The position numbers were made by a program, and so were the translations under genes. The notes beneath the pieces are model-generated. The model worked only from the letters and a program-made list of their open reading frames with translations, did not search any database and was not told the DNA's origin. A stretch of DNA of 64,000 nucleotides from an uncultured Flammeovirgaceae bacterium (GTDB lineage Bacteria > Bacteroidota > Bacteroidia > Cytophagales > MED-G16): assembly GCA_913052485.1 (NCBI GenBank), contig CAJXDN010000001.1, positions 2,444 through 66,443 of the forward strand, written 5' to 3'. Each line of letters starts with the position of its first letter. Within the stretch, counting starts at the first letter, position 1. Shown one piece after another: positions 1,750 to 20,864 of this stretch.

Positions 1750-2514
1750 ATGAAATATTTACTAAATCTAATTTTTATATTTTTAATTACTTTCGTGTCA
1801 ATAGCACAAGATAACTGGGATCCTACTGATCATAAAGTTGGTTATTGGCAGTTTAGGCAGATAGCTGAAGATGATGTGGCAAACTTCCTATACAACGAGA
1901 ATAATGTTTACAGGGGAATTGTAAAAGAGGCTATTGCTGAAGGTGATATGGTTCACTGGGGATTAGCCAGAAAGTTGACAGGTAATACATCTACCGGTCA
2001 TAACTACTTCTTTTATAATGGTTTTGCTGAAGTGTCTGATCTAGATAGCCCTACTTGGGGATCTGGAGCAAATTTTGGTCTAAGACCTGTGGGCTCTGCT
2101 GGAGTTCTTGGCGCTGTTTATACCTCGCCAGCAATTCAAGTCTTTGCTGACACTCCAAAACCAGGAAACTACATTGTTGTAAATACTGCAAATCCTACAG
2201 ATGTGGGTGCATTTGTTCAATTACAAAATAATGTATGGAAACCATTTATTCAGGGTTTTATCAATGACGAGAGTTCACCATGGGCAGGCTGGGAAGTTCA
2301 AACTGTAATGTCTCCTACTGGAAATAGTTCCTCATGGAGTGTTGTTACGATTGATCATTTTACAACTTTGAGTGGAGCAATGAATTCTTTTCCAAACGGA
2401 GCTGAATGGCCAGAGGGGCTACAGGAAATTAATGATTTATTACCAAATGGTAAATTCACAAGTACTGTAATATATGAAGTTGTATATTATGAAGGTCCTG
2501 GTGCTAGTAAGTAA
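1750..2514 (+). CDS. hypothetical secreted protein (tandem-array member)
   Basis: 254-aa ORF with signal peptide MKYLLNLIFIFLITFVSIAQ. Same two-half layout as 984..1736. Confidence 0.7.
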   Translation: MKYLLNLIFIFLITFVSIAQDNWDPTDHKVGYWQFRQIAEDDVANFLYNENNVYRGIVKEAIAEGDMVHWGLARKLTGNTSTGHNYFFYNGFAEVSDLDSPTWGSGANFGLRPVGSAGVLGAVYTSPAIQVFADTPKPGNYIVVNTANPTDVGAFVQLQNNVWKPFIQGFINDESSPWAGWEVQTVMSPTGNSSSWSVVTIDHFTTLSGAMNSFPNGAEWPEGLQEINDLLPNGKFTSTVIYEVVYYEGPGASK

Positions 2515-2536: not shown

Positions 2537-2565
2537 AAGCCCTTCATTACGGAGGGCTTTTTTTA
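2537..2565. terminator. bidirectional intrinsic terminator between convergent genes
   Basis: Hairpin AAGCCCTTC-attac-GGAGGGCTT followed by a T-run (aaagcccttcattacggagggcttttttt). It sits in the only sizeable convergent spacer in the window. Confidence 0.7.
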
Positions 2566-3357
2566 TATGCTCACTCTAAAACCAAGTAATGTGTCTGTCT
2601 CATTAGAGATAGATGGTATGTAAGGTTCGGATTGAACTCGAGCATTAAATTTCAAGAATATAGTTGCCTTCTTACTAATTATATAATTCAAAGTTGTATC
2701 AAAAAACACTCTATAATTTTTAAGCCTACTTGATTTCCATTGGCTATACATCACGGTCACTAAATTCCAGTGCGTATTAAATTTTAATCTTGTGAAAATA
2801 TTAAGTGTTAATCTTAGGTTATTATATGTATTTGGAGCAAATTCTACTTCCTGAAATTTATAGCTAGGGTATGATTCATTTTCATAGAATGCGCCCAAGG
2901 CAATATCAAAGTATCCAGTGTTTTTTGACGGGGTAATTCTCTTTCTTACACCTCCACCTACAAGGAACCTTCTATCAATTAAAGATCTCATACTTTTTCC
3001 GATCTGTACAAATGAAAAAATTGAATGATGCTTCTCAACATTATAATAATAATTGTATCTGAATTGACCTGATACATTATTCTTGAATGCATTCCCATTA
3101 AATTTCTGATAGTTATTAGAAAATGTTAATCTTAGTAGATTTTTACCTTTTACTCTTGAGCCTATTGTGAGGTTTGATTTTATCATGAAGAAATCAATAT
3201 TCCCTTTTTTATAATCACCCATTCCATCAATAAATAGGTGGAAGGTTGAATCAATTTTATTTAGGTTTGATTCAGTGTTAACTACTGTTTGAGAGAAAGA
3301 CATAAAACAGAAAGAAAATAAAGAAAATGAGAGGATTATTATTTGTTTTTTATTCAT
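2563..3357 (-). CDS. outer-membrane beta-barrel protein (DUF481-like)
   Basis: 264 aa with a signal peptide. Alternating hydrophobic beta-strand pattern, Tyr/Asn-rich, aromatic/hydrophobic C-terminal strand (LLGFRVSI). The family assignment is from memory of DUF481 and is not verified. Confidence 0.55.
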   Translation of the reverse strand: MNKKQIIILSFSLFSFCFMSFSQTVVNTESNLNKIDSTFHLFIDGMGDYKKGNIDFFMIKSNLTIGSRVKGKNLLRLTFSNNYQKFNGNAFKNNVSGQFRYNYYYNVEKHHSIFSFVQIGKSMRSLIDRRFLVGGGVRKRITPSKNTGYFDIALGAFYENESYPSYKFQEVEFAPNTYNNLRLTLNIFTRLKFNTHWNLVTVMYSQWKSSRLKNYRVFFDTTLNYIISKKATIFLKFNARVQSEPYIPSISNETDTLLGFRVSI

Positions 3358-3445
3358 TTGAAATGTTTTTTTTACCCAACAAAATTAAATTTATTTAATA
3401 ATTTTTCTTTATTATTAGATATTAATTTTGAATTAAAAACAGATT

Positions 3446-4048
3446 TTGGAGCTTAAAAAGTACGTGCCTGAGGCATTAATTAAGTTAGTTTATGATGATT
3501 TATCTATGAAATTAGATAATAAATATCATTATCATAACCTTCATCATACCAAAAGAGTAATTAACTCTGCAGGTGAAATTGGTAATCATTATAATTTAAG
3601 TCGTGACGACTGGAGAGATTTACTGACTGCATGTCTACTACATGATTATGGTTTTATTAAATCACACATTGATCATGAGGAAACTGGTTCTAAGATTTCA
3701 AAAGAGATCCTACCAGATTTCTATTATTCTGATGATCATATCGAGTCAATATCCTCTCTAATCTTAATAACAAAAGTTGCAGAGAAGCCAAGTAATCTTC
3801 TTGAATCAATTATAAGAGATGCTGACCTAGAATATATTGGCTCTGACGATTTCGAGAAAATATCTGAATATTTAAAAAAAGAATGGCTTGAATGTGGTGT
3901 TGTAGAAAACGATAATCAATTTTATAAAATTCAATATGAATTCTTGCTTTCTCATAATTTTTATACTGCTTATATGGGGGAAAAGGGTAGAGAGCAGAAA
4001 TTAAAAAATATCAGTTATTCTAAGAAGATGATGCATTTACATCAGTAA
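3446..4048 (+). CDS. HD-domain metal-dependent phosphohydrolase
   Basis: HD superfamily motifs H..HH (YHNLHHTKRV), HD (LLHDYGF) and a distal D (RDADLEY). TTG start as in the ORF track. An internal ATG (MKLDNKYHY) is an alternative start. Confidence 0.8.
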   Translation: MELKKYVPEALIKLVYDDLSMKLDNKYHYHNLHHTKRVINSAGEIGNHYNLSRDDWRDLLTACLLHDYGFIKSHIDHEETGSKISKEILPDFYYSDDHIESISSLILITKVAEKPSNLLESIIRDADLEYIGSDDFEKISEYLKKEWLECGVVENDNQFYKIQYEFLLSHNFYTAYMGEKGREQKLKNISYSKKMMHLHQ

Positions 4049-4549
4049 GAATTCAAGAATCAGAATTAATATCATAGAACAGAAAGAGTATATCATAAAC
4101 TTAATTGCTTTAGATATATTCATGTACTTATCTGAGGCGATCACACCATTAATAAATGCTTGTTCAGCGAGTAATTCTTTTAGTTTTTTTTCATCCTCCA
4201 TAACACTAATAAGTTCTTTCGAGTATACCTGTGCATCCTTGTAATAGAAATTTATATCGTGAAAGAAAAAGACTGATTTTTTAAGTTTTTGATTTATTCT
4301 TGGAATGTATGTTTTAAATGCAAAAAAAATTGATGTGAGGGTGAACCCTAAGAAAATAGCACCCATTATATATAGTAAATATTTATATTTTTCTGGAATT
4401 GGCAAACTGCCGCTTACATCATAGGCTAATCCAAATACTAAACCATATGCGGTTAAAATTAGGGAGGCTTTTAATTCTGAGTGCTGTATATGATGTACAT
4501 TATAATCAATGAGGTCCCAGTAGTTGGAAATAATTGAATTTTTTTTCAT
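4037..4549 (-). CDS. small 3-TM membrane protein, DUF5706/PycTM-like (Pycsar-effector-family-like transmembrane domain)
   Basis: 170 aa. N-terminal W-x-x-I ... SELKASLILTAYGLVFG segment followed by a second TM (YLLYIMGAIFLGFTLTSIFFAF) and a C-terminal TM. This resembles my recollection of the DUF5706/PycTM family, which is often fused or adjacent to HD domains. No cNMP-binding domain is present. Confidence 0.55.
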   Translation of the reverse strand: MKKNSIISNYWDLIDYNVHHIQHSELKASLILTAYGLVFGLAYDVSGSLPIPEKYKYLLYIMGAIFLGFTLTSIFFAFKTYIPRINQKLKKSVFFFHDINFYYKDAQVYSKELISVMEDEKKLKELLAEQAFINGVIASDKYMNISKAIKFMIYSFCSMILILILEFLLM

Positions 4550-4636
4550 AATTTTTATTAATCAAATTATATATAAATATATCAAAAAGTAGCTTAATTT
4601 AATTGTTAATGTGTATTTATCTAGTTAAATTTAATT

Positions 4637-5062
4637 ATGAATAAGCAAAATCCAGTAGTTGAATTAAAATTACCTGTAATCCCAGATATTGAACTTTCTG
4701 CGACAAAAACAGCTGAAGTAATTTCAAGACACATGAACTTATCTGAAGAGAAGACAGGTGAAATTAGCATGGCCATTATAGAATCTTGTATTAATGCCTT
4801 TGAGCATTCTAAAACGAAAGAAATATTTATACACTTTATTATATCTGCCGACAAACTTACCATTAAAGTCAAAGATCAAGGTGTAGGATTCGATAAGTCA
4901 AAAGTGGAAATTCCTAATATCGAAAATAAATTAAACTCTGACGAAAGAAAGAGAGGTTGGGGACTGCAGCTAGTTTCAGCTTTGATGGATACCGTTGAGT
5001 ACGATAGTGATGAAACTGGTACAACTGTTACAATGACTAAAAAAAGAGAAGATAATGAGTGA
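4637..5062 (+). CDS. RsbW/SpoIIAB-like anti-sigma regulatory factor (serine protein kinase, HATPase_c_2)
   Basis: 141 aa. N-box E..NA..H (ESCINAFEHS), G1 box DQGVGF and G2 region RGWGLQLV. Overlaps the next gene by 8 nt. Confidence 0.85.
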   Translation: MNKQNPVVELKLPVIPDIELSATKTAEVISRHMNLSEEKTGEISMAIIESCINAFEHSKTKEIFIHFIISADKLTIKVKDQGVGFDKSKVEIPNIENKLNSDERKRGWGLQLVSALMDTVEYDSDETGTTVTMTKKREDNE

Positions 5063-5399
5063 TTCTATAAAAAATGTTGAGGAAAAAAGTGGGGTAGTGG
5101 TAATAACCACGAGTGGTTACTTTAATAATATTGCTGGCGATGCTGTATTAGAAGTATTTAATGAGAAAATGGAGGAGGGTAGAACTAATTTCTTAATTGA
5201 TATGGAGGATTCTAAAGTAGTGAATAGTATAGGTGTCTCAATTCTTATTGAATTAATTGAAAAATTACAGACTGTTGATGGAAAATTAGCATTTACTAAT
5301 CTCGCTGCAATTGTTGAAAAAACTTTTAACATTATGGGTCTCACTAAATACTGTGAAGTATATGACTCAGTTGATTCCGGGGTTGATAATTTATCATAA
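5055..5399 (+). CDS. STAS-domain anti-sigma-factor antagonist (SpoIIAA/RsbV-like)
   Basis: 114 aa. Conserved phospho-acceptor context DMEDSKVVNSIGVSILIELI, with Ser58 (codon 5226-5228) aligning to the DSSG serine of SpoIIAA. Translationally coupled to the upstream kinase. Confidence 0.85.
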   Translation: MSDSIKNVEEKSGVVVITTSGYFNNIAGDAVLEVFNEKMEEGRTNFLIDMEDSKVVNSIGVSILIELIEKLQTVDGKLAFTNLAAIVEKTFNIMGLTKYCEVYDSVDSGVDNLS

Positions 5400-5404
5400 T
5401 TTTA

Positions 5405-6967
5405 ATGGCAAAAATATCTTCAAAAAAATCAGTAGAAGATTTAGAAAAGCAACTCCTTAAGAAAAATAAAGATTTAAATGCCAAATATCTCGAGCTAGAA
5501 ACACTACTTGATTTAACAAATACTATTAACTCTTTAGAGGATCTAGATGAATTATTTTTTAGTGTTCTCTCTTTATCATCATCTATAATTAACTCATCCA
5601 AAGGATTATTATTATTGAAGAATGATATATCAAATATTTTTGATCCTGTATCTGTTTTCAATTTAGATGAGAAAAATATAAAAAAGCAGATTTTTAATAC
5701 TAGAACAGGTTTTCTTAAAAGGTTAAACTCCGATAAAAAATCTTTTATTATATCTAAAGAAGATAATTTCAATCACGATTTATTTCAATCTAGTTATTCA
5801 CTGGTTAGTCCAATCATTTACAATAAAAAGTTAGTTGGAGCATTAATTCTATTTGATAAAGAAACTAGAAATGGTATATGTGACTTTAGTAAGAATGACC
5901 TAAAACTTTTAGATGGAATATCTATGCAGACAAGTATAGCCTACCAAAATGTAAAGTTAGTTGAGTCACTTAAGAAATCTAACAAGTTGAATGATAATAT
6001 CATGTCATCAATCACAACAGGTATTATTGAAATTAATTTATTTGGAGAGATTCAGTTTGTTAATAAGGAGGCTATAAGACTACTAAAGAAAGATGAGAAA
6101 GAAGTTTTAGGAAATCATTACTTGATAATTTTTGAAAATGATGAGTTATTAACAAATATCATACAGTCTGTTGAGGAAGATCAGGAGAGAGTTTTTGAGA
6201 CTGAGTTTTCACTTAGTTCTGGTAAGAAAAAAATTAGTGTGAATATTTCATTTTCACCTGTATTCGATGAGAAGAAGAATTTTTCAGGAATTGTTATAGC
6301 AATCGACGACTTATCAAAAATAAATAAGGTTAAGTCTACATTTAAAAAGTATGTATCAAAAAATATTGTAGATAAACTTCTAGAAAATGAAGATTCATTA
6401 AATCTCGGGGGGAAAGAGAGTGAGGTTACTATCCTATTTTCGGATATCAGAGGTTTTACAAGTATGTCAGAAAAATTAAATCCTACTGATATTGTAAAGC
6501 TTCTGAATAAATATTTTAAGTCTATGATTGATGTTGTTTTTAAATATAATGGAACCTTGGACAAGATTGTAGGAGATGAATTAATGGTTCTTTATGGTGT
6601 GCCATTGAAAGATGAAAAAGATACACATAATGCTGTTAAGACTGCTATTAAAATGTTTGATGCTCTAGATCTATTTAATAAAAAAATTGTAAAAGATGGG
6701 TATAAGCCTTTTAAGATAGGAATAGGAATTAATAAAGGAAAAGCTGTTTCTGGAAATATAGGTTCTGAACAGCAAATGAATTATACTGTTATTGGAGATA
6801 CCATTAACTTAGGTGCAAGGCTCTGTTCACACGCGAAATCAGGACAGATATTAATTTCTGAATCTGTTAAAGATATAATTGGTGACGATTATAATTTTAA
6901 AAAGATACCCTCAATAGAGGTGAAAGGAAAGTCTAAACCTATTGTCGTCTGGTCCTACAGACACTGA
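5405..6967 (+). CDS. GAF-PAS-class III adenylate/guanylate cyclase
   Basis: The C-terminal cyclase homology domain has metal-binding Asp residues (ILFSDIRGFT, IVGDELM) and a transition-state Asn/Arg (GDTINLGARL). Upstream are a PAS-like segment (IMSSITTGIIEINLFGEIQFVNKEA) and a GAF-like segment. Starts 5 nt after the STAS gene. Confidence 0.88.
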   Translation: MAKISSKKSVEDLEKQLLKKNKDLNAKYLELETLLDLTNTINSLEDLDELFFSVLSLSSSIINSSKGLLLLKNDISNIFDPVSVFNLDEKNIKKQIFNTRTGFLKRLNSDKKSFIISKEDNFNHDLFQSSYSLVSPIIYNKKLVGALILFDKETRNGICDFSKNDLKLLDGISMQTSIAYQNVKLVESLKKSNKLNDNIMSSITTGIIEINLFGEIQFVNKEAIRLLKKDEKEVLGNHYLIIFENDELLTNIIQSVEEDQERVFETEFSLSSGKKKISVNISFSPVFDEKKNFSGIVIAIDDLSKINKVKSTFKKYVSKNIVDKLLENEDSLNLGGKESEVTILFSDIRGFTSMSEKLNPTDIVKLLNKYFKSMIDVVFKYNGTLDKIVGDELMVLYGVPLKDEKDTHNAVKTAIKMFDALDLFNKKIVKDGYKPFKIGIGINKGKAVSGNIGSEQQMNYTVIGDTINLGARLCSHAKSGQILISESVKDIIGDDYNFKKIPSIEVKGKSKPIVVWSYRH

Positions 6968-6968
6968 A

Positions 6969-9900
6969 TTATTTTGCTAGTTTTTTACAGACTACAATCG
7001 TAATATCATCAGGGTTATGAATACCTTGAAGCCAGTTATCAGATAATTTTACTAATTCGTCTTTTATTTCATCAGCAGATTTTAGAGAGTGTTCCTCAAC
7101 GCAATTTTTGACTGCTTCATAATCAAGCAAATCACCTTTTTTATTCGGAGCTTCTGGTAGACCATCTGATATCATGACTAAGACATCGCCTTTTGAAAAC
7201 TTTTTATCTAAAACTGTAAAATCCTCAGTCATTAAACCTCCAAGTGGTAAATTAGAAATTTGAATTTCATCAACCTTATTTTTTTTCTTTTCAAAGTGAT
7301 ATATTGGAGGCATAGCCGCAGAACTTAATTTCATAGATCCATTTTGGAAGTGGGCAAGGTTGAGACTCATCCTCAGTCTACCAATATCTACCTTTTTAAT
7401 TATTTTATTTAACGTCTTCATTATATAATTTGGATCCTTTGAATCAATACCAAGGAGACCTGCTTTAGTTATTGATACCATCATACCAGAAGCAGTCCCA
7501 TGACCAGTAGCATCTCCACAAATTACAAGCAAGCTCCCATCTTCAAATTCAATGAAATCGTAATAGTCTCCACCTACTTCTGTGGCACACTTTATATATG
7601 TGCTGATATCTAGATCATTTCTTTTAGGGTTTTCTTTTGCGAGGAGCCCCATCTGTAAATTATGTGCTTCCTCTAGCTCTTCTTCTTTTCTCTTATCCTC
7701 CATTAATTTTTTTGTTCTATCTTGATTAAATTTAACATACATGTAGATTGATGAAACAATAAGAACTATGTATGCTATTATAGCATATATTGTGAGGTAC
7801 CACGGTGGAATTACTGATATTGAATATTCAACCTGGTTTATACTTTCAATTCCTGAGCTATTAGTTGATTTAACTCTTAGTGTGTAATCACCATAAGGTA
7901 ATAGAAGTTTGTTTTCAGCAAAATTACTTTGTGAAAAACCTGAGCTTTGAATAATAATTTTTCTATTTGAGCCAAGGCTTAACCAACTCTCATTTAGAGG
8001 TTCAAGCTTATAAAATAGCTGTGTGTTATTTGTTTTATAAAATGAGGGAGAGGATAATGTTAGTTCTATGTTGGTTATATCATCTGTTAAATTTATGACT
8101 GAATCTTCAATGCTTAAATTTAATTCATCATAATTTTTATCAATAATTTTAGATGACACTAGACTGATTACTGGATTTTCATAGTCAATAAAAAGATTAT
8201 AAAAATCTATTTTCTGAATATTATTATCTGAAAATACGTATAAGAAATCATCATAAAAACTTAGTCCATTTTTTAAGAATTTACCAATTTCTAGTCCATC
8301 TTCATTATTAATATTTCTTAGGTTATTATTATTTCCATCAGTGAGGGTAGACATTACCTCGAAATCAAAATAATTAACGCCCTTGTCTGTTAAAATGAAT
8401 AGATGCTGATAAGTTTTTAGAAAACCTAAAATATTATTGGATAATAACCCATTCACTGTTGTGAAGTTTTTAAATCCAATGGAATCATTTTGGTAGATAA
8501 AGATACCATCACCATTCGTCCCAACATAGATCTCATCGTTATAGTCAATAAGACTACTTATTGAAGAACTTGTGATACTTGTTTTATCATTTATGTCAAA
8601 AATATAATGTTTTACTAAATCTAAATTTTTTGAGTATCTGTAAAGACCAGTATTAATATTAGAAACTAAAATTTCTTCATTTGGTAGCTTGAGAACAGAT
8701 GAAAATCCATTTGGCAATTTATTTTTAGTTCTTGGATTAAATTTAAAATTTCTAAATTCTTCACTATCGATATTTAATATAGATATTCCATTATCTAATG
8801 AAATCCATAGTTCTTTATTAAATTCCTCATCTATTAGTAGTGAAAAATTATTTATTATTCCATCCATTAATGAGTTCAGGCCTTCTGAGGAATATTCATA
8901 TTGACTTATGTCATCAGTATATAAATCTAAGATAAAAAGCTTATCAGTACCTATGTATAGGTACTCATCTTCCTCTAACAAAATAGTTGCATTGCTATTA
9001 GTTTTTTCTCCAATTATATCTTCTAGAGAATAGCTTACATATAATTCGTCTTCCTCAAAGACTAATATTCTAGAATCAGTTAATAAAACTCTATAGTAAT
9101 CATTTTCCTGAATTGCAATTATCTCTTCGTCATCATCTAGCTCCTCATTCTTAGTAGTTAAACTATTTAATTTTTCAGTAACTCTAAAAACTCCACTCTC
9201 AGTGGAAATATAATATGCACCTTTAAAGTTTCTGACATCATTTATCCTTAATTCATTCGACATAGGAACGTCTATATCAAGGTAATCATTTTTATTTTTA
9301 ATAATCCTTTTAAAACTATTTGATAAAGGTGCATACAGGACAAACTCATTATCAGTAATTTTTCTTGTCTTTCCAAAACCATTTATATTAGAAATCTTTC
9401 TGAGAAATATTTCCTCTTCATTAATTTTATCAATTATAAAAAGCCCCTCCTCTGAATGAATAATGATATCATCATCAACAGAGAATGTATTGTATATGTT
9501 AGTGTTTTTTAGACTGTTATAATTACTAATCTCGTTATTTTCAGGGTTTATAATAGCTAATCCATTCTGAGTTGCAGCTAATATTTTATTTGCAATTGCG
9601 ATCTTTCCGCTTGAAAACTTTTTATCAACAAAAAATAAGTCATTAATATAATTTGAATTTAATGTGTTTGAATCTTTTGTCTCATAAAATCTTTTATTCA
9701 AGTTCGAATTTAAATTGTATTTATTTAAACCATAACTCGTTCCAATCCAAAGATCTTGATTAACTTTTAAAAGAACTTCATTTTGGTTTATACTGAAGTT
9801 AGATGACGATATTGAAAGAGGATTTCTTGGATCAAATTTTAAATTTAAACTCGATAAGTCATTCAAATTTAAAATATATACTCCGTCATTTTTTGATGTT

Positions 9901-10292
9901 ATGAATAAATTATCGTCACTTCTAGTATGATAAATAGGTGATGAAACACCAGTTCTAAGAAAACTATTACTCGAATATGAGAAGTAATCTAAGTTAGAAG
10001 TAGATTTAATATATACACCATTATTATTTATTTGAAATGCCTCAAAAATTAGATTATTTGATAAAGTTGTACTATCAAATGGATTCGATTTAAATATAGA
10101 GTTTATACTCCCATCATATCTATTTAAACCTTCAGGAGTACTTATCCAGAAAAAATTATTTTTATCTAGGAAAATAGAATTAACGTTCTCCGAAGATATA
10201 TTTTCAACATCAAATTTTTTTACTAGAAAGTTTGATTGTGAAAATATATGTTCAGTTACAAGAAATAGTAATGCTAGGAGAACGTTCTTCAT
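6969..10292 (-). CDS. extracytoplasmic-sensor PP2C phosphatase (Reg_prop beta-propeller repeats + Y_Y_Y domain + TM + SpoIIE/RsbU-type PP2C)
   Basis: 1107 aa with a signal peptide and a long repeat-rich ectodomain. Y_Y_Y-type motifs are FYKLEPLNESW, LPYGDYTLRVKSTNSSG and VIPPWY, immediately before a TM helix (LTIYAIIAYIVLIVSSIYMYV). The cytoplasmic PP2C motifs are GGDYYDF, CGDATGHGTASGMM, MISDGLPE and DDITIV. Confidence 0.88.
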   Translation of the reverse strand: MKNVLLALLFLVTEHIFSQSNFLVKKFDVENISSENVNSIFLDKNNFFWISTPEGLNRYDGSINSIFKSNPFDSTTLSNNLIFEAFQINNNGVYIKSTSNLDYFSYSSNSFLRTGVSSPIYHTRSDDNLFITSKNDGVYILNLNDLSSLNLKFDPRNPLSISSSNFSINQNEVLLKVNQDLWIGTSYGLNKYNLNSNLNKRFYETKDSNTLNSNYINDLFFVDKKFSSGKIAIANKILAATQNGLAIINPENNEISNYNSLKNTNIYNTFSVDDDIIIHSEEGLFIIDKINEEEIFLRKISNINGFGKTRKITDNEFVLYAPLSNSFKRIIKNKNDYLDIDVPMSNELRINDVRNFKGAYYISTESGVFRVTEKLNSLTTKNEELDDDEEIIAIQENDYYRVLLTDSRILVFEEDELYVSYSLEDIIGEKTNSNATILLEEDEYLYIGTDKLFILDLYTDDISQYEYSSEGLNSLMDGIINNFSLLIDEEFNKELWISLDNGISILNIDSEEFRNFKFNPRTKNKLPNGFSSVLKLPNEEILVSNINTGLYRYSKNLDLVKHYIFDINDKTSITSSSISSLIDYNDEIYVGTNGDGIFIYQNDSIGFKNFTTVNGLLSNNILGFLKTYQHLFILTDKGVNYFDFEVMSTLTDGNNNNLRNINNEDGLEIGKFLKNGLSFYDDFLYVFSDNNIQKIDFYNLFIDYENPVISLVSSKIIDKNYDELNLSIEDSVINLTDDITNIELTLSSPSFYKTNNTQLFYKLEPLNESWLSLGSNRKIIIQSSGFSQSNFAENKLLLPYGDYTLRVKSTNSSGIESINQVEYSISVIPPWYLTIYAIIAYIVLIVSSIYMYVKFNQDRTKKLMEDKRKEEELEEAHNLQMGLLAKENPKRNDLDISTYIKCATEVGGDYYDFIEFEDGSLLVICGDATGHGTASGMMVSITKAGLLGIDSKDPNYIMKTLNKIIKKVDIGRLRMSLNLAHFQNGSMKLSSAAMPPIYHFEKKKNKVDEIQISNLPLGGLMTEDFTVLDKKFSKGDVLVMISDGLPEAPNKKGDLLDYEAVKNCVEEHSLKSADEIKDELVKLSDNWLQGIHNPDDITIVVCKKLAK

Positions 10293-10310
10293 ATAAACTT
10301 ATGTTAAAGG

Positions 10311-11885
10311 CTAAATTTGACTCTTAGCTAGCTCTCTAACTAGTGCTCTTCCAATTCCGTAAAAATTCTCATTAGCGATCCTATCAAATAAAGCATTCGC
10401 TTCGTCATTTTTTCCAGCACCCTTTAGAGCTAGTCCATGGAAATAGTCAAAGTATACGTTATCAATGCCCAAAGGACCCGATCCTACACTTCCGATATTT
10501 TTTTCATAAGATTCAATTGACGCAGTAAAATCTCCCTCGTTTAAATGGATCATTCCCTCGAAAACATTAATGTCTGAATATGGAAATTGTGCTTCAGGGT
10601 TTTCTATAATCCATCCATCAATATGCTCTCTTGCTGATGATAAAGATTGTCTGGCATCATCATATCTGCCAAAAAGAATCTCATGCCATGCATTTAATAA
10701 TATTACATTATAATCTAACCAATCTTTACTTTCTTCATATTGATTTCCTGTCATTGAAGCTTTATTATAGTCGATGACATTCATTCGATACTTTGCGAAA
10801 AGATCAATCTCATTATAGGATTCATCTTCTTGTTGATTATGTGAATATGATAGAAACCTATTAAAATGTGTATTAGCAAGTTGATTATTTTCCCATGTGT
10901 AAGGGAGTTCAAGTGATGGTAATTTTTCAATGTATTCATCAGTTGCCTCAATTGCTCTATCAAAATTATTAGCAAATATGTGTAAGCTTGGCATGAAGCC
11001 TAATGCTTGCCTATCATAACCTCCTCCTGCTAACTCAATATTTTTCCTAAAAAAAGATTCAGCTAAATCATATTTTCTAAGAAAAGTATTTGTTAATGCG
11101 AGGTAATGGTTTGACTGGTAAACATTGAGATTATCTTCAGATGGTATATTTCCAACCTGCTCATAATACTCAATTGCCTTTTCAAAATTACCCTTAGCTC
11201 TCTCATAGTTTCCTGCATATGTTGGCCCGTATGGGTTGTTTGAGTCAATTTCTATCATTCTGTCAATATACATTTTAGCAGTCTCAAGATTTCTTTCTTC
11301 AACAGGAAGCATTCTACCTAGTGTACCCACAACCATGTGCTTAGCCATCAAGTATGCATTAGCACCGTAGCTATTAGGATTCACTTCAAGACACTTTTCT
11401 AAGTCACTTATTGCGTCTTTAATGTCTCCACCTCCACCTCCAGATTTTAGTATTCCGCTATGTAGCCAGAAGACTGGTATATCAGGATATTTAGTAGTGA
11501 GTTCTTTAAATGTTTCTCTTGAATCTCGACCTTCACCAGTTGCTCTCTCAAACCAACCTTTTATATAAATAGCTTCCATTTCAGATACAGATTCCAGGTC
11601 GTTATTATAAATATCAGTTAGGATCTTTCTATCAGTATTATTTACAAATGGTGAATTTAATAGAACTTTAGCAGTTATGAATTCAGGATCCTTAGACAAT
11701 GCAGCTTTTAGTAAGTTTTCAGCTTTTTGCCAATTTAATCCTGAGTGTGTGTCTAAAGCCTCATAAAATAGTTCCTTTGCTTCGTCAGAAGTAGTTGTTA
11801 CCATCATCCTTTTTTTTTGAACTTCTTGAGTGCCTCCACAAGAAATTAAAAAAATTGAGATTATTACATAAATAAAATTTTTCAT
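10311..11885 (-). CDS. TPR-repeat lipoprotein
   Basis: Signal peptide plus lipobox (MKNFIYVIISIFLISCGG) from the ATG at 11885. The track's 11939 start adds an unlikely 18-aa extension. Repeated TPR-like helices. Ends 18 nt upstream of the PP2C gene on the same strand. Confidence 0.75.
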   Translation of the reverse strand: MKNFIYVIISIFLISCGGTQEVQKKRMMVTTTSDEAKELFYEALDTHSGLNWQKAENLLKAALSKDPEFITAKVLLNSPFVNNTDRKILTDIYNNDLESVSEMEAIYIKGWFERATGEGRDSRETFKELTTKYPDIPVFWLHSGILKSGGGGGDIKDAISDLEKCLEVNPNSYGANAYLMAKHMVVGTLGRMLPVEERNLETAKMYIDRMIEIDSNNPYGPTYAGNYERAKGNFEKAIEYYEQVGNIPSEDNLNVYQSNHYLALTNTFLRKYDLAESFFRKNIELAGGGYDRQALGFMPSLHIFANNFDRAIEATDEYIEKLPSLELPYTWENNQLANTHFNRFLSYSHNQQEDESYNEIDLFAKYRMNVIDYNKASMTGNQYEESKDWLDYNVILLNAWHEILFGRYDDARQSLSSAREHIDGWIIENPEAQFPYSDINVFEGMIHLNEGDFTASIESYEKNIGSVGSGPLGIDNVYFDYFHGLALKGAGKNDEANALFDRIANENFYGIGRALVRELAKSQI

Positions 11886-12019
11886 AATGTTTCTTAATAA
11901 TTTTTTACAATAAATTAGAATTAATTTAATTTTTATCAATTTTAATAAATAAAAATTAAATGAATTGATTTTTCAATTAAAAAATCAATGTTTCTCTGGT
12001 CTTTCTGCTAATTATTCTT

Positions 12020-12229
12020 TTATAATTCCATTAGAGTCTTGTAAAACTCTTTTGATATAGTGAAATATCTGCCGTCTTCTATGTGTAAAGATCCATCTCC
12101 TCTGTTATTTAATGAGTGATATTTAGTAATATGATCCTTGAATTTATTAATGTCTTTGACTAAATAATCTCTCCCATAGTCATCTTTTATTATGACCTTT
12201 TCCATTTTTTTAAGATTTTGTGTAACCAA
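12020..12229 (-). CDS. small hypothetical protein (61-69 aa)
   Basis: ORF only. An alternative ATG at 12205 (MEKVIIKDDY...) exists. No recognisable motif. Confidence 0.4.
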   Translation of the reverse strand: MVTQNLKKMEKVIIKDDYGRDYLVKDINKFKDHITKYHSLNNRGDGSLHIEDGRYFTISKEFYKTLMEL

Positions 12230-12282
12230 AAAAAAGTAATCGACGTTTAGTAAATATCTTAATAGTTTGGTTTACTAGAATT

Positions 12283-12308
12283 AACCCTCACATGTGAGGG
12301 TTTTTTTT
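12283..12308. terminator. strong palindromic hairpin with a T8 run on the + strand
   Basis: AACCCTCA-catg-TGAGGGTT followed by TTTTTTTT (12301-12308). It lies directly after the stop of the minus-strand mini-lipoprotein ORF, but the good U-tract is on the + strand. Confidence 0.6.
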
Positions 12309-12450
12309 ATCCTTCATTTCCAGAACCAGGACGTTCAGCTTCAGGCCTGTCGGCTTCACACTCAGATCCCCTACAAGGTAGATTATCTTCGAAGCCACAT
12401 GATGATAGGAAAATAATAGTTAAAAAGGATAATGTCCTAATTGATTTCAT
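12307..12450 (-). CDS. 47-aa candidate lipoprotein (below the ORF-track length cutoff)
   Basis: Manual translation gives MKSIRTLSFLTIIFLSSCGFEDNLPCRGSECEADRPEAERPGSGNEG*. It has a signal peptide with lipobox LSSC. It lies 24 nt downstream of the DegP-like gene on the same strand and is followed by the hairpin. Confidence 0.45.
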   Translation of the reverse strand: MKSIRTLSFLTIIFLSSCGFEDNLPCRGSECEADRPEAERPGSGNEG

Positions 12451-12474
12451 ATACGTAAAAATAATTATTTTTTT

Positions 12475-13953
12475 TTACCATCCAATTCCGTAGTATGCCT
12501 TGACTCCATTTGGATATAAGCCTTCTACCAGTACTCCGTCGTCTTTAGGTAGTTGTGATAGTATTGTTGATAAATCCTCAACATCAGATATACCTCTTTT
12601 GTTGATCGAGGTGACAATAAATCCTTTAGTAATACCTGAATTTTTCCACTTACCATTATTTATTTCACTTACCTGGGCACCTCCATCGATTTCTAATTTT
12701 TCTCTAAGTTCTTTTGGTACATCTGCGAATACTGCTCCATCAATAGTAAAAGAATTAGATGATGCTACAACTTCTGTGGTTCCTAAAGTGTTTTTTAATG
12801 TTGCGTTAAGTGTTCTTTTATTACCATCTCTAATGTATGTTACTAGTATTTTATCTCCCGGTCTATTTATTGCGACTTGTTCCTGGAGGTTAGATACATT
12901 TCTGATCTCGGCTCCATTTATTTCTACTATAACATCGCCTGACTCTAAGCCTGCCTCATCAGCTGCTCCGCCATCATTGACTCTATCGATCAATACACCA
13001 GTAAGAACAGGTAGATCCCTATCCTCTGCTATTTCTGCATTTACATCTAAGATAGTTATTCCTAATAAAGCCCTCTGAACAACACCATACTCAACAAGGT
13101 CCTGGTAAACTTTCTTTACCAAGTTAGATGGTATAGCAAATGAGTACCCTGCAAACGTTCCTGTTGGAGTAGCAATAGCTGAATTTATACCAATTAGATT
13201 TCCTCTCAGGTCAACAAGTGCACCTCCAGAGTTCCCAGGATTTACTGGCGCTTGATGTTGTATGAAAGCTTCGATTTGAAGGTTATTTCTATCTCTTAAT
13301 ATTCCAATATTTCTTGCTTTTGCACTAACTATTCCTGCAGTCACCGTAGATCTAAATTCAAAAGGAGAACCCACTGCCAGAACCCATTCTCCAATTTCAA
13401 CATTATCAGAATTTCCAAATGCTACGGTTTGAAGATCTTCAGCATCAATTTTTAGTACTGCAATGTCTGTTGTTGGGTCGTTGCCTTCTACAGTTGCGAT
13501 GAAAGTTCTGTTATCACTTAACAGCACCTCTACCTCGGAAGCATTTTCTATGACATGATTGTTTGTTATTATATATCCGTCACTTGTCATTATTACTCCC
13601 GAACCTGAACCTCTCCTTCTTGGCACTTCTCTCTCTCTGTTATCATACCTCTCTCCAAAAAAGTCTCTGAACATATCTTCAAATGGATTCCTGGTGGTTG
13701 TTGATCTACCCTCGAATGTGGTTCGAATATGTACAACGGCCGGAGTGGTTTTTTTTGATGTGTATATAAAATTAAGTCCTTCTGGTACAATTACATCTGT
13801 GGTGTCATATACGTAATTGGCAAGTTTTATATTTTTATTATTGTTGATATTTACATCAGTTTCAGGATTAAAGTATTTATATCCAGTAATAGAAGTGAGT
13901 CCACCTAGAACTGAGAACAGTATTGCAAATAAATAACTTTTTATATTTTTCAT
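12475..13953 (-). CDS. periplasmic serine endoprotease, DegP/DegQ/HtrA family (trypsin-like domain + 2 PDZ)
   Basis: Catalytic triad context (TNNHV, DIAVLKI, GNSGGALV) and two C-terminal PDZ-like regions (GDVIVEINGAEI; GFIVTSINKRGI). Confidence 0.9.
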   Translation of the reverse strand: MKNIKSYLFAILFSVLGGLTSITGYKYFNPETDVNINNNKNIKLANYVYDTTDVIVPEGLNFIYTSKKTTPAVVHIRTTFEGRSTTTRNPFEDMFRDFFGERYDNREREVPRRRGSGSGVIMTSDGYIITNNHVIENASEVEVLLSDNRTFIATVEGNDPTTDIAVLKIDAEDLQTVAFGNSDNVEIGEWVLAVGSPFEFRSTVTAGIVSAKARNIGILRDRNNLQIEAFIQHQAPVNPGNSGGALVDLRGNLIGINSAIATPTGTFAGYSFAIPSNLVKKVYQDLVEYGVVQRALLGITILDVNAEIAEDRDLPVLTGVLIDRVNDGGAADEAGLESGDVIVEINGAEIRNVSNLQEQVAINRPGDKILVTYIRDGNKRTLNATLKNTLGTTEVVASSNSFTIDGAVFADVPKELREKLEIDGGAQVSEINNGKWKNSGITKGFIVTSINKRGISDVEDLSTILSQLPKDDGVLVEGLYPNGVKAYYGIGW

Positions 13954-14089: not shown

Positions 14090-14506
14090 CTACTTTATTT
14101 CGATCGTCTTTTTAATTGACGCCTTTGTGTCTTTTTTGATTGAAATATTTAAAATACCATTCTTATAATTTGCACTTACCTTAGACTCATCAATATCATC
14201 AGGTAATTGGAATGATCTAGAAAACTTTCCAAAGCCATTCTCAATCGAGTGATAACTTTCTTTTTTATCTTCAAATTTTCTCTCCCCAGATACAGTCAGG
14301 TAACCTTTATCAATTTCTAATGATAAATCACTCTTATTCATTCCAGGAACTGAAAATAAAAAATTGAAAGAATTATCTGTCTCCGAAATATCTACTTTCG
14401 GTGAAAATTCACTTTGAAATTCATTATTAAAAAAATTATCAAAAAAATTATCAAATAATAATGGTCTTACATAATTATTTGATGGTCTTAAAATTAATTG
14501 TCTCAT
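14090..14506 (-). CDS. Hsp20/alpha-crystallin family small heat-shock protein
   Basis: 138 aa. Alpha-crystallin domain signature (PKVDISETDNSFNFLFSVPGMNKSDLSLEIDKGYLTVSGER...FSRSFQLPDDID...ANYKNGILNISI). Confidence 0.9.
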   Translation of the reverse strand: MRQLILRPSNNYVRPLLFDNFFDNFFNNEFQSEFSPKVDISETDNSFNFLFSVPGMNKSDLSLEIDKGYLTVSGERKFEDKKESYHSIENGFGKFSRSFQLPDDIDESKVSANYKNGILNISIKKDTKASIKKTIEIK

Positions 14507-14720: not shown

Positions 14721-14794
14721 GCCTTCTTAGCTCAGTTGGTTAGAGCAGTAGACTGTTAATCTATTGGTCCTAGGTTCGAGTCCTAGAGAAGGCG
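14721..14794 (+). tRNA. tRNA-Asn (anticodon GTT)
   Basis: Manual cloverleaf: acceptor GCCTTCT/AGAAGGC, D arm GCTC/GAGC, anticodon arm GTAGA-CTGTTAA-TCTAT, T arm CTAGG-TTCGAGT-CCTAG, discriminator G. 74 nt. Confidence 0.9.
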
Positions 14795-14868: not shown

Positions 14869-16074
14869 ATGAGAAAATACGATTTAGTTGTTTGGGGAGC
14901 AACTTCTTTTACCGGAAAATTAGTTACGGAATACTTATTCAATAAGTACGGATCTTCAAAAATTAAATGGGCTATTGCTGGAAGAAATTTAGATAAATTA
15001 GAAAAAGTAAGATATCAGGTAGCCGACGGTAACCTTCCAATGATTATTGCAGATAGTTTTGATGAGGAAAGTCTATCAAAATTTGTAAAAAAAACAAGGG
15101 TTGTATGTTCAACTGTTGGACCTTACTCGTTGTACGGGACAAAACTTGTTAAGCTATGTGTTGAGAATAATACAAATTATTGTGATATAACAGGAGAAGC
15201 TCATTGGATAAGAAACTTGATTGATGACTATCATGAAGAAGCGAAGTCCAAAAAAATAAAAATTGTAAATTCCTGTGGTTTCGACTCGATACCCTCTGAT
15301 ATGGGTGTTTATTTTATTCAGAATGAAATAAAAAAAACTTATAAAACTTATGCAAATTCTATTAAAATGAGAGTTGCAGGTGTAAGAGGAGGAATCAGTG
15401 GTGGAACCTATGGTAGTATCAATAATTTATTAAAGGAAGCCTATTCCAATAAAAAAATATTTAGAGTTTTAAATAACCCCTACGGTCTCAATCCAAAAAA
15501 TAAAATGGAGGGTATGGACAAGAAAGATATAAGGAAAATTATTTTTGATAAGGAATCAAACTCTTGGATTTACCCATTTATAATGGCGGGAATTAATACG
15601 AAAATTGTAAGACGAAGCCACGCATTAACTAATTTTCAATATGGCAAAGATTTTAGATATGAAGAAGCTATGATGTCTGGTAAAGGTATTTCTGGTTTTC
15701 TTAAAGCTATCCTAGCTGTATTCCCACTGGCTATGATTGGTTTAAATCCAAATTCTTTCTTAAAAAAGATCGTAAATTCATATATGCCAAAACCTGGAGA
15801 GGGTCCTGGTGTTGAAAAAAGGAAAAATGGTTTCTATAACTTAAGATTTTATGTAAAAATTGATGAGAGGAGAAAGGCTTTCGCTAAGGTTATAGGAGAT
15901 AATGACCCGGGCTACGGTTCAACCTCAAAAATGCTAGCCGAATCTGCTCTATGTCTAGCATTTGATAAGTTACCTGAAAACTATGGTGTTGTAACCCCCT
16001 CCATTGCTATGGGTAAACAACTTCTCGAAAGATTAAGAAATAATGCAGGATTAGATTTTAAAATTAGTATATGA
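14869..16074 (+). CDS. saccharopine dehydrogenase family oxidoreductase (SCCPDH-like)
   Basis: N-terminal Rossmann motif YDLVVWGATSFTGKLV. Length and the CGFDSIPSD motif are typical of the family. Confidence 0.75.
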   Translation: MRKYDLVVWGATSFTGKLVTEYLFNKYGSSKIKWAIAGRNLDKLEKVRYQVADGNLPMIIADSFDEESLSKFVKKTRVVCSTVGPYSLYGTKLVKLCVENNTNYCDITGEAHWIRNLIDDYHEEAKSKKIKIVNSCGFDSIPSDMGVYFIQNEIKKTYKTYANSIKMRVAGVRGGISGGTYGSINNLLKEAYSNKKIFRVLNNPYGLNPKNKMEGMDKKDIRKIIFDKESNSWIYPFIMAGINTKIVRRSHALTNFQYGKDFRYEEAMMSGKGISGFLKAILAVFPLAMIGLNPNSFLKKIVNSYMPKPGEGPGVEKRKNGFYNLRFYVKIDERRKAFAKVIGDNDPGYGSTSKMLAESALCLAFDKLPENYGVVTPSIAMGKQLLERLRNNAGLDFKISI

Positions 16075-17003
16075 TGCCTCATTTATTCTCAACTTTTTTT
16101 TACTTAATGTTCTTCTTTCAATTGGATTTCTCAGATTATACTCAGAAGATTGATGGTTCAGACCTCTCAATAGATATGGTTTCAATTAGTGGTGGAAAAT
16201 TTGATATGGGAGAGAGTCTAAGAGATAATACTGAAGTTTCTTCATTCTGGATATCAAAGTATGAGATTACATGGGAGATATATAATTTATTTATGGAGCA
16301 CGAAATTTCTAATGACCAGAAATTTAAAGTTGGGGATGAACGGATTTCTTTAGATGGCATAAGTAAACCCACTACTCCTTACACTGATATGACTTTTGGG
16401 ATGGGTTATGAAGGTTATCCCGCTGTTAACATGACACACTACTCTGCAACAAAATTTTGTCAGTGGTTATCAATCAATACTGGATATTATTATAGACTTC
16501 CTACAGAGGCAGAGTGGGAATATGCTAGTAGAGCTGGATCTAGAAAAGACAATTGGTTTGGAGATGAAGTATCCGTGATAGATGATTATGCCTGGTACAA
16601 AGAAAACTCAGGTGGAAAATACCAGAAAGTTGGTCAAAAGAAACCAAATAGTTGGGGGCTGTACGATATGTTAGGAAACGTTTCTGAGTGGGTCGCTGAC
16701 TCGTATGAGGAACGAATATTCAAGCCAAGAGGGATAAGAAAGAATCCATTTGTTTACGACGAAAGTAAATACCCAAAAGTATACAGAGGAGGATCATGGA
16801 AAGATAAACCTGAAAATTTATCAAGTTCTAAAAGATATTTTTCAGATAAGTCACTCCAAAAGAGAGATCCTCAAATTCCAAAAAGTTTATGGTGGAATAC
16901 AGACGCACCATTTATTGGGTTCAGAGTAGTTCGAGTTGATGAAATTAGTAAAAGCTCTCTTAGAAAGAAGTTTTGGAATAATTTAAATTTTATAATAAAT
17001 TAA
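16071..17003 (+). CDS. formylglycine-generating-enzyme (SUMF1/FGE-sulfatase) domain protein
   Basis: Motifs YRLPTEAEWEYASRAG, WGLYDMLGNVSEWVAD and YRGGSW. ATGA overlap with the upstream gene. Confidence 0.85.
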   Translation: MMPHLFSTFFYLMFFFQLDFSDYTQKIDGSDLSIDMVSISGGKFDMGESLRDNTEVSSFWISKYEITWEIYNLFMEHEISNDQKFKVGDERISLDGISKPTTPYTDMTFGMGYEGYPAVNMTHYSATKFCQWLSINTGYYYRLPTEAEWEYASRAGSRKDNWFGDEVSVIDDYAWYKENSGGKYQKVGQKKPNSWGLYDMLGNVSEWVADSYEERIFKPRGIRKNPFVYDESKYPKVYRGGSWKDKPENLSSSKRYFSDKSLQKRDPQIPKSLWWNTDAPFIGFRVVRVDEISKSSLRKKFWNNLNFIIN

Positions 17004-17025
17004 ACTTGAAACATTCTATATACCC

Positions 17026-18336: not shown

Positions 18337-18345
18337 ATTTTTATA

Positions 18346-20582: not shown

Positions 20583-20606
20583 GAGTACTATTTAAATATA
20601 AGTGAA

Positions 20607-20864
20607 TTGAGTAACCAAAATACAAATTATTGGAAAGAAAACTTAAGATATGTAGGAATTCTTTTATTAGTATGGTTCACGGTCTCTTTTTGTTTTTCAA
20701 TTTTATTTAAAAATTTTCTTGATAATTTTTATATAGGCGGGTTCAAGCTTGGCTTTTGGTTTGCACAGCAAGGTTCAATGTATGTTTTTGTCATACTTAT
20801 TTTTATATATGTTCACCTCATAAATAAGCTTGACAAAAAATATGGATTTGATAAAAAAAGTTAG
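20607..20864 (+). CDS. DUF4212 small membrane subunit of a sodium:solute symporter
   Basis: 85 aa, 2 TM, N-terminal YW..N motif. It lies immediately upstream (2 nt) of an SSS transporter. TTG is the only in-frame start that gives a full-length protein. Confidence 0.75.
   Translation: MSNQNTNYWKENLRYVGILLLVWFTVSFCFSILFKNFLDNFYIGGFKLGFWFAQQGSMYVFVILIFIYVHLINKLDKKYGFDKKS

Follow-up and report, generated by a model that had tools for sequence, protein, structure and literature searches.

A conserved partner-switch island predicted to gate a class III nucleotide cyclase in an uncultured Cytophagales bacterium

Partner switches are textbook regulators of sigma factors, and a few of them are known to steer cyclases that make cyclic di-GMP (c-di-GMP). 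Here we analyzed a stretch of 64,000 nucleotides from an uncultured Flammeovirgaceae bacterium of the order Cytophagales (GCA_913052485.1, contig CAJXDN010000001.1, positions 2,444 to 66,443), referred to below as the window. It carries a seven-gene island (3446-11885) in which a sensor PP2C phosphatase, an RsbW-type kinase and a STAS protein lie next to a class III nucleotide cyclase. According to the reading we favor, at a probability of roughly 70%, the island would serve physiological signalling by a cyclic nucleotide, with the partner switch gating the cyclase instead of a sigma factor.

The closest described system is SiaABCD of Pseudomonas aeruginosa, composed of the PP2C SiaA, the kinase SiaB, the small partner SiaC and the diguanylate cyclase SiaD. 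SiaC reportedly binds SiaD. Both systems are single gene clusters with the same apparent logic, since a PP2C and a kinase set the phosphorylation of a small partner and a second-messenger cyclase is co-encoded. Their parts differ, however. The Sia output is a GGDEF protein and its switch is made of an SiaB-type kinase and the DUF1987 protein SiaC, whereas the window has a class III cyclase, a HATPase_c_2 kinase and a true STAS protein, and adds an HD hydrolase and a membrane protein with three transmembrane segments (3TM). The PP2C of the window matches the SiaA model faintly (E 0.007), and gene fusions in relatives point to contact between the kinase and the cyclase. Judging by the co-occurrence and fusions of the predicted phosphatase, kinase, switch protein and cyclase, the module is analogous to SiaABCD; by its non-homologous components it is not a member of it.

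An earlier note on this DNA (the original prediction) had named HsbR/HsbA/HsbD as the precedent. In this HptB pathway of P. aeruginosa, the STAS anti-sigma antagonist HsbA and an RsbW/PP2C-type regulator are said to feed the diguanylate cyclase HsbD; HsbR reportedly combines a receiver, a PP2C and a kinase and is driven by a phosphorelay, and HsbA is said to act also on the anti-sigma factor FlgM. The shared logic holds, but SiaABCD is the closer system. In addition, the input of the window module is one or more periplasmic sensor PP2Cs, and it is the kinase that is found fused to the cyclase, which points to the kinase as the contacting protein. The RsbU/RsbV/RsbW-SigB and SpoIIE/SpoIIAA/SpoIIAB-SigF switches of Bacillus subtilis share with the window all three protein families and the position of the phospho-serine (Ser58). 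They likewise have overlapping kinase and STAS genes and several PP2Cs acting on one switch (up to three in relatives of the window). In contrast, the window has no sigma factor gene, its kinase gene precedes its STAS gene, and the target that appears to co-evolve with the switch is a cyclase. We found no published partner switch coupled to a class III cAMP/cGMP-type cyclase in the accessible literature, outside which many subscription papers lie. Nostoc hcyA-D was considered as a precedent and rejected, as adenylate cyclase is only a two-hybrid tool there.

The island consists of the following features.

3446-4048, plus strand: HD-domain phosphohydrolase, 200 amino acids, TTG start (Pfam HD)
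4037-4549, minus strand: PycTM-like (DUF5706, pJV1-spdB3 family) 3TM protein, 170 amino acids (Pfam PycTM)
4550-4636, no strand: divergent intergenic region of 87 nucleotides, AT-rich, with presumed promoters (from the gene coordinates)
4637-5062, plus strand: RsbW/SpoIIAB-type serine kinase, 141 amino acids (Pfam HATPase_c_2)
5055-5399, plus strand: single-domain STAS protein with Ser58, predicted kinase antagonist, 114 amino acids (Pfam STAS)
5405-6967, plus strand: GAF-PAS class III (IIIb-like) nucleotide cyclase, 520 amino acids (Pfam Guanylate_cyc, PAS, GAF)
6969-10292, minus strand: sensor PP2C phosphatase, 1107 amino acids (Pfam SpoIIE; Y_Y_Y, Reg_prop)
10311-11885, minus strand: TPR lipoprotein with lipobox LISC, 524 amino acids (Pfam TPR families)

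The seven open reading frames (ORFs) were present exactly where the original prediction had placed them, and all of its overlaps and gaps agreed to the base. The kinase and STAS genes overlap by 8 nucleotides, and a gap of 5 nucleotides separates the STAS gene from the cyclase gene. There is 1 nucleotide between the stop codons of the cyclase and PP2C genes and there are 18 between the TPR and PP2C genes; the HD and PycTM-like genes overlap tail-to-tail by 12. The longest ORF of the TPR protein reaches 11939 (10311-11939, minus strand), and the ATG at 11885 gives a lipoprotein signal (MKNFIYVIISIFLISC). Pfam scores were compared with the gathering cut-offs and are given as score/cut-off in bits. 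HD (30.1/22), PycTM (44.8/27.2), HATPase_c_2 (84.4/27.4), STAS (51.9/22.6), Guanylate_cyc (113.2/21.9), GAF (23.9/22.4), SpoIIE (87.1/25), PAS (41.7) and the TPR repeats were all above cut-off. This bore out every domain call made earlier, with the qualification that Y_Y_Y (24.2/26.6) and Reg_prop (19.1/20.4) fall just under cut-off in the window PP2C itself; they are clear in orthologous PP2Cs. All seven proteins have many conserved homologues and are thus not chance ORFs. A scan of 3300-12600 for sigma-70 consensus promoters and terminators gave counts equal to those of shuffled sequence with a tool that does not model Bacteroidota promoters, and an Rfam scan of the window found two tRNAs only, with no riboswitch near the island. 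The divergent promoter region suggested earlier has its exact length in the window and is not kept in relatives, because these carry two extra PP2C genes there.

To assess conservation, we performed a cyclase-anchored scan, in which one genome per species was scanned with an alignment of cyclase orthologues and the flanks were searched with the window proteins. Related loci are given by our own labels. The kinase, STAS protein and PP2C were found at all six orthologous cyclase loci (37-78% identity) with enough flanking sequence, which come from a marine Cytophagales, a freshwater Cytophagaceae metagenome-assembled genome (MAG), an unclassified Bacteroidetes MAG, Balneola, Sediminibacterium and Gemmatimonadales. 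A seventh orthologous locus, L009, is a 2.5-kb contig with a cyclase-HD gene only. Gene order varies among the loci: in L011, for example, it is PP2C, cyclase, kinase and STAS, which is the order of Gemmatimonadales. Among 73 more distant cyclases, none had a STAS neighbour, profile hidden Markov models (HMMs) included, and there was one weak HATPase match.

The kinase-anchored scan covered metagenome contigs and started from the most divergent sequence so as to widen the sampling. Of the 41 orthologous kinase loci that had enough sequence downstream, 35 contained the cyclase, and at least five gene orders were seen. The cyclase was not found in one lineage with ExbB-ExbD-ExbD-TonB genes after STAS, in one locus with genes on the opposite strand, in one with a second PP2C-kinase pair and in one cut by the contig end. 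The genes thus stay together well past close relatives, in several Bacteroidota lineages and Gemmatimonadota and in shuffled orders, as the synteny check proposed earlier had asked. By this comparison of predicted proteins, the sensor PP2C, RsbW-type kinase, STAS protein and GAF-PAS class III cyclase are shown to be a conserved four-part unit.

Two contigs of a freshwater lineage show a further arrangement. In L132 (1-9192) and L141 (1-5017) the genes for a TPR-type PP2C and another RsbW-like kinase come after the PP2C-kinase-STAS set, and in L132 a cyclase-HD-YitT unit precedes the set; both contigs end early. They may represent two partner switches in series or in parallel.

The best case for a cyclase standing where a partner switch normally has its sigma factor comes from gene fusions. 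In L102, GAF-GAF-PAS-cyclase-HATPase_c_2 is encoded by a single stop-free frame of 830 residues flanked by STAS genes. Similarly, we tested seven representatives of clusters at 50% identity, chosen for an unexplained C-terminal extension of about 160 residues, and in all seven an RsbW-like kinase is fused to the C-terminus of the cyclase, which together with L102 makes eight. A GAF-PAS-cyclase-HD fusion was found in P0174, in the three genome loci L006, L007 and L009 and in nine or more metagenome loci. Neither the scanned loci nor the tested representatives showed a fusion of STAS to the cyclase. Whatever the gene neighbourhood, the fusions connect the cyclase with the HD protein and especially with the kinase, and they point to the cyclase, not a sigma factor, as the partner of the kinase. 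Apparent fusions of PP2C and cyclase in L095, L096 and L109 were rejected, as these are GAF-PP2C proteins that match the cyclase query through GAF alone.

The same predicted wiring recurs in dozens of distant bacteria. Since it is conserved across Bacteroidota and Gemmatimonadota and hard-wired as fusions, it looks like a signalling pathway that is widespread and has gone undescribed. This would give RsbW-like kinases a concrete candidate role in phyla that, as far as we know, lack SigB/SigF-type sigma factors. It would also connect a second messenger with periplasmic beta-propeller sensors, which are characteristic of the way Bacteroidota sense glycans. The module is carried by abundant streamlined marine bacteria, and its genes are represented in ocean metatranscriptomes.

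Next, we examined the individual proteins, beginning with the cyclase. It keeps the two metal-binding aspartates (D347, D391), the transition-state Asn/Arg (N468, R472) and a Lys387/Thr461 specificity pair, and all six residues are invariant in 14 orthologues. A Lys/Thr pair is the signature of class IIIb adenylate cyclases in the classification of Linder and Schultz. The protein thus carries the catalytic and specificity residues expected of a class IIIb enzyme, and the Lys/Thr pair predicts an adenylate cyclase whose product is most likely cyclic AMP (cAMP). A catalytically dead domain, which had been raised as a way in which the original prediction might fail, is not what these residues point to. 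Among solved structures it is most similar in sequence to Synechocystis Cya2, P. aeruginosa CyaB and Spirulina CyaC (E 7e-50 to 4e-28), and no chain named as a Pycsar cyclase occurs among the 60 solved-structure matches listed. These nearest solved cyclases are class III adenylate/guanylate cyclases and include the IIIb enzymes CyaB and CyaC. We know of none among CyaB, CyaC and Cya2 that is controlled by RsbW, STAS and PP2C proteins or fused to RsbW or HD.

The kinase has an N box (INAFEH), a G1 box (DxGxGF) and a G2 box (RKRGWGL) that are invariant in 10 orthologues. It scores far below the NCBIfam equivalog cut-offs for RsbW (64.7 vs 145 and 54.9 vs 155) and SpoIIAB (47.5 vs 135), and the STAS protein matches the SpoIIAA model, also far below the equivalog cut-off. 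Ser58 of the STAS protein lies in a V-N-S58-I/V-G (NSIG) motif that is invariant in 10 orthologues, and in our own comparison it aligns with what we take to be the phospho-serine (S58) in the DSSG motif of SpoIIAA. The kinase, the single-domain STAS protein and the PP2C each have the sequence features predicted for a partner-switching module. The kinase does not qualify as an RsbW or SpoIIAB anti-sigma equivalog, as judged from its scores and from an operon with no sigma factor gene. Consistent with the original prediction, the Pfam scan and flank annotation revealed no sigma factor gene within about 10 kb on either side of the island, and none was present among the genes annotated in related loci. 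A search of the 64-kb window found no second STAS, RsbW, PP2C or cyclase gene elsewhere, nor a cyclic nucleotide monophosphate (cNMP)-binding protein. Kinase identity is 56-66% across several Bacteroidota lineages, with 36% to Gemmatimonadota, whereas the cyclase is 41-49% identical across the same Bacteroidota. Such higher conservation is expected for a protein with several interfaces.

On the input side, the PP2C consists of a signal peptide, periplasmic Reg_prop beta-propellers and Y_Y_Y, one transmembrane helix (825-856) and a cytoplasmic SpoIIE/PP2C domain, in whose translation the metal motifs GGDYYD, GDATGHG, SDGL and DDIT can be read. The hybrid two-component systems of Bacteroides have the same periplasmic set of Reg_prop and Y_Y_Y followed by one transmembrane helix, but their output is a histidine kinase with receiver and AraC domains, whereas the output in the window is a PP2C. 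In Bacteroides these domains bind glycan fragments. PP2C orthologues adjoin the kinase or the cyclase in nearly all related loci, and relatives have between one and three sensor PP2Cs, in which the sensing part is Reg_prop/Y_Y_Y, TPR or GAF. A sister group has two additional Reg_prop/Y_Y_Y PP2C genes between the PycTM-like gene and the kinase, giving three phosphatase inputs to one switch; this extra region was located as follows.

L087/L088, 11306-17103: extra sensor PP2C region
L005, 1-5407: extra sensor PP2C region
L003, 1-2560: extra sensor PP2C region

The adjacency of the TPR and PP2C genes is kept in L001, L005, L008 and more than 15 metagenome loci, and the TPR lipoprotein is a probable periplasmic co-sensor with the PP2C. 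A DUF481 gene (2563-3357, minus strand) is divergent from the HD gene. In L145, the DUF481, PycTM, TPR and PP2C genes are co-directional with gaps of a few bases, and a DUF481 gene also lies beside the module in L119 and L133. The DUF481 protein is possibly an accessory or envelope component, maybe an outer-membrane part of sensing; its membership of the module is uncertain.

The HD protein retains its metal-binding motif, with H30/H34, H66-D67, H77 and D125 invariant in 18 homologues, and the TTG start is supported by a conserved N-terminus. The HD domain at the C-terminus of the cyclase fusion P0174 shares 35% identity with it (E 2e-28). A sequence search against the PDB returned a single match, the uncharacterised HD hydrolase 2pq7 (E 5.5e-05), which is also the top fold match of an AlphaFold2 model with a predicted local distance difference test (pLDDT) score of 95.8. 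The next fold matches are the class I cNMP phosphodiesterases (PDEs) PDE5, PDE1, PDE2 and PDE10 (TM 0.6-0.7, E 1e-3 to 1e-2), which is suggestive and not decisive because PDEs are over-represented in the PDB. The fusion of an orthologous HD domain to the cyclase supports a role on the cyclase product. We therefore kept the earlier suggestion that the HD protein turns over the nucleotide, in the form of a candidate cyclic-nucleotide phosphodiesterase that is present in some lineages and missing in others.

The PycTM-like protein matches the PADLOC model PycTM PDLC02364 (E 3.3e-22) over positions 5-154 of 160. Its three-segment topology was partly supported by Kyte-Doolittle analysis, with strong transmembrane segments at 57-79 and 145-170 and a weaker third at about 28-46. 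An AlphaFold2 model built from 18 homologues was poor (pLDDT 54) and was not used. PycTM-like orthologues, 25-37% identical and all above the Pfam cut-off, occur beside the module in at least four positions and orientations. In the window the gene is divergent from the kinase and tail-to-tail with the HD gene; L003/L005 and L087 are similar with two PP2C genes inserted. The commonest alternative arrangement is a PycTM-TPR-PP2C operon headed by the PycTM gene with gaps of 3-30 nucleotides (L119, L126, L145, L151, L158, L160), and in L126 the PycTM-like gene is also head-to-head with an HD gene. Finally, in L146 and L159 the PycTM-like gene is directly convergent on the cyclase. It was never co-directional with the cyclase in the loci seen. 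The divergence of the PycTM-like protein (25-37%) tracks that of the cyclase (43-51%), as expected for co-inheritance. L003 had seemed to hold a PycTM-HD pair without the module, which was discarded: the contig ends there, and the neighbour is an extra sensor PP2C orthologous to those of L005 and L087, so the island is merely larger.

Other lineages have other proteins in this place. After cyclase-HD genes, the next gene overlaps the stop codon and encodes a YitT/DUF2179 or TMEM175-family membrane protein, and the operon of the Gemmatimonadota type goes on to encode a VWA-SH3 protein and a tandem cNMP-binding protein. Overall, the sensor-switch-cyclase core stays constant, and its partner, in most cases embedded in the membrane, varies. 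PycTM and PucTM are 3TM antiphage effectors of Pycsar and Pucsar that are activated by cyclase products and form a hexameric cylinder (preprint 10.64898/2026.08.12.744502). Because this is the known role of the family, we prefer an effector role here, and the PycTM-like protein is a candidate cNMP-responsive membrane effector by analogy. It accompanies the module beyond a single lineage, and the effector role suggested for it in the original prediction is the one we prefer; its operon link with the TPR and PP2C genes would also allow a place on the input side.

Close homologues of the island occur in marine metagenomes and Tara samples. Flavobacteriia had been taken as the lineage in which to look for relatives, which did not hold, since the closest relatives with a name are the single-cell genome of a 'Marinoscillum sp.' and the MAG of a 'Cytophagales bacterium', and the locus is thus Cytophagales-like. 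Relatives on contigs of more than 1 Mb show the same context, with M16 peptidases, aldehyde dehydrogenase, DUF481, the island and HtrA; in the more distant relative L001, both flanks have changed and the seven genes are still together. Judged by its conserved housekeeping flanks, the locus is core-genome and vertically inherited among related genomes. Each of the seven genes is covered by marine metatranscriptome contigs that are 88-99% identical to the window, the kinase and STAS genes most deeply. Single contigs span kinase-STAS-cyclase (4994-5440) and the PP2C-TPR junction (10151-10807).

Based on these results, we propose the following mechanism. The kinase, presumably a dimer like SpoIIAB, would bind the cyclase and set its activity, and would also phosphorylate Ser58 of the STAS protein, keeping it off. 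A periplasmic cue, perhaps a glycan or envelope signal, would be sensed by the beta-propeller and Y_Y_Y part of the PP2C, probably with the TPR lipoprotein, and would activate the phosphatase. Dephosphorylated STAS protein would then capture the kinase, and cyclase activity would change; GAF and PAS may add cytoplasmic inputs. The HD protein would hydrolyse the product, most likely cAMP, and the PycTM-like 3TM protein would be the likeliest receiver, altering the conductance of the membrane. The receiver role would fall to YitT, a TMEM175-family channel or the tandem cNMP-binding protein in other lineages. The wiring from PP2C through STAS and kinase to cyclase, as the original prediction had it, is supported by synteny, the intact cyclase residues and the fusions, all of them products of comparative genomics.

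Several observations weigh against a cyclase-gating module. The PP2C-kinase-STAS trio lacks an adjacent cyclase in L118, L124 and L127, which form one lineage, and in L167. In the former lineage, ExbB-ExbD-ExbD-TonB genes directly follow the trio (e.g. L127 5902-7994), so that the cyclase may be encoded at another place in these genomes, or the switch may act on something else there. Strong as it is, the link is thus not an obligatory one in cis. HD and PycTM genes are missing from many module loci and are therefore lineage-variable accessories, not universal parts. The PycTM-TPR-PP2C operon fits an input role of the PycTM-like protein no less than an output role. By fold, the HD protein matches PDEs weakly, in a database where PDEs are over-represented, and the view of sigma factor genes covers 64 kb of the genome, so that a target elsewhere is possible. 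The metatranscriptome contigs are strandless and may include DNA, which makes them supportive only. Binding partners, product, cue and the role of the PycTM-like protein are all read from comparative genomics. As a separate observation, a TPR lipoprotein gene homologous to that of the window follows in L124 on the opposite strand.

A bolder extension of the cyclase-gating reading is that the island is an environmentally gated, core-genome relative of Pycsar, with a kinase-clamped cyclase, a hexameric PycTM pore opened by cNMP, reset by the HD protein, and a TMEM175-family K+ channel, a YitT protein or a tandem cNMP-binding protein as receivers in sister lineages. We put it forward tentatively, as possible and on balance doubtful. 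If it were true, the PycTM family would include a physiological cNMP-gated membrane effector, and the module would be a housekeeping counterpart of antiphage cyclase-3TM systems, either an ancestor or a domesticated derivative. Bacteroidota would also gain their first cAMP pathway for which the input logic is known. The repeated attachment of a Pycsar-type 3TM protein and an HD protein suggests that this 'immune' effector family possibly has a housekeeping cNMP-gated role, which would bear on the origin of defence systems from ordinary signalling parts.

Where the PycTM-like protein acts is the point on which an alternative survives best. It could belong to an envelope input apparatus with the DUF481, TPR and PP2C proteins and modulate the phosphatase, rather than receive the nucleotide, given that it is the first gene of the PycTM-TPR-PP2C operon, sometimes after DUF481, and never co-directional with the cyclase in the loci seen. 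We consider this unlikely. The only known role of the family is that of an effector in cyclic-nucleotide systems, and the gene is paired with HD in two orientations (window, L126). In L146 and L159 it adjoins the cyclase with no PP2C or TPR gene between, and lineages without PycTM carry other membrane proteins directly after the cyclase.

A second alternative concerns which switch protein touches the cyclase. The STAS protein in one phosphorylation state might itself bind and activate the cyclase, with the kinase only setting that state. This is the mechanism reported for both known partner switches acting on cyclases, SiaC-SiaD and HsbA-HsbD, and the STAS gene lies immediately upstream of the cyclase gene in most lineages, as it does at 5 nucleotides in the window. 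However, all eight fusions of a switch protein that were found join the cyclase to the kinase and none joins it to STAS, and the kinase is better conserved than the cyclase (56-66% vs 41-49%). Direct contact by STAS, as in the precedent that the original prediction named, therefore appears rather improbable, while its wiring of STAS and kinase to the cyclase is supported by synteny and fusions. We retain the kinase as the preferred contacting protein.

An antiphage function is very unlikely in our judgement. In this scenario, a Pycsar/Pucsar-like abortive infection system would make cNMP on infection, the PycTM-like pore would kill or arrest the cell, and the HD protein would prevent auto-activation. 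Both the island and Pycsar/Pucsar combine a class III-fold cyclase with a pJV1-spdB3/DUF5706 3TM protein, and the PycTM-like protein matches the PADLOC PycTM model over its full length (E 3e-22). PycTM and PucTM have been shown experimentally to be antiphage effectors, but the same work sets stand-alone, fast-evolving immune cyclases apart from physiological ones (preprint 10.64898/2026.08.12.744502). The cyclase of the window is fused to GAF-PAS sensors, lies nearest, among solved structures, to physiological adenylate/guanylate cyclases, and matches the PADLOC PycC models at 77 bits, below the 113 bits of the generic Guanylate_cyc model of Pfam. It also appears to be under a partner switch, has an HD hydrolase attached and lies in a vertically inherited housekeeping context that is not a variable defence island. 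Cyclase and PycTM-like genes do not form a two-gene operon, as they lie on opposite strands with the kinase and STAS genes between, and many lineages of the module have no PycTM. Thus, as predicted from its sequence, the island shares the effector family of Pycsar and is not Pycsar by its cyclase clade (architecture, scores and structure matches), operon or context.

The weakest alternative, and a highly improbable one, is that the kinase sequesters a distant sigma factor while the cyclase is a co-transcribed neighbour under independent GAF/PAS control, since trios of HATPase_c_2, STAS and SpoIIE proteins are the classical regulators of group-3 sigma factors, the visible part of the genome is 64 kb and a few orthologous trios lack an adjacent cyclase, but cyclase-kinase fusions recur, the neighbourhood is kept across phyla despite shuffled orders, no sigma factor gene is annotated in related loci, the kinase scores far below the equivalog cut-offs, and we know of no SigB/SigF-type sigma factors in Bacteroidota.

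The island is flanked in the window by the DUF481 gene, three unknown secreted proteins, HtrA, Hsp20, a tRNA and metabolic enzymes.

290-976, 984-1736 and 1750-2514, plus strand: tandem secreted proteins of about 230-255 amino acids with no Pfam match
2563-3357, minus strand: DUF481 protein, 264 amino acids, signal peptide (Pfam DUF481, 44.6 bits)
12475-13953, minus strand: HtrA/DegQ-type protease (trypsin and two PDZ domains)
14090-14506, minus strand: Hsp20 chaperone
14721-14794, plus strand: tRNA

Homologues of the third secreted protein lie near the module in L158 and L160 (one gene past PycTM), L126, L146, L159 and L001. The tandem proteins may be an unrecognised island-linked family or retained synteny. 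The HtrA/Hsp20 neighbourhood is kept in L005, L085 and L086 and not in L001 or L008. The HtrA and TPR genes are minus-strand genes, and a terminator-like hairpin on the plus strand (12283-12302) separates them. In L085 (3846-4952, 13534-19502), the M16 peptidase, PP2C, TPR and HtrA genes are fragmented, with longer versions in L086; these splits look like assembly frameshifts of long-read, 'pilon' contigs and not like pseudogenes. Further downstream in the window, the region 16071-22540 encodes an FGE-sulfatase-type enzyme, a GFO/IDH/MocA oxidoreductase, a xylose-isomerase-like TIM-barrel protein and a sodium:solute symporter, genes that would fit sugar uptake and metabolism.

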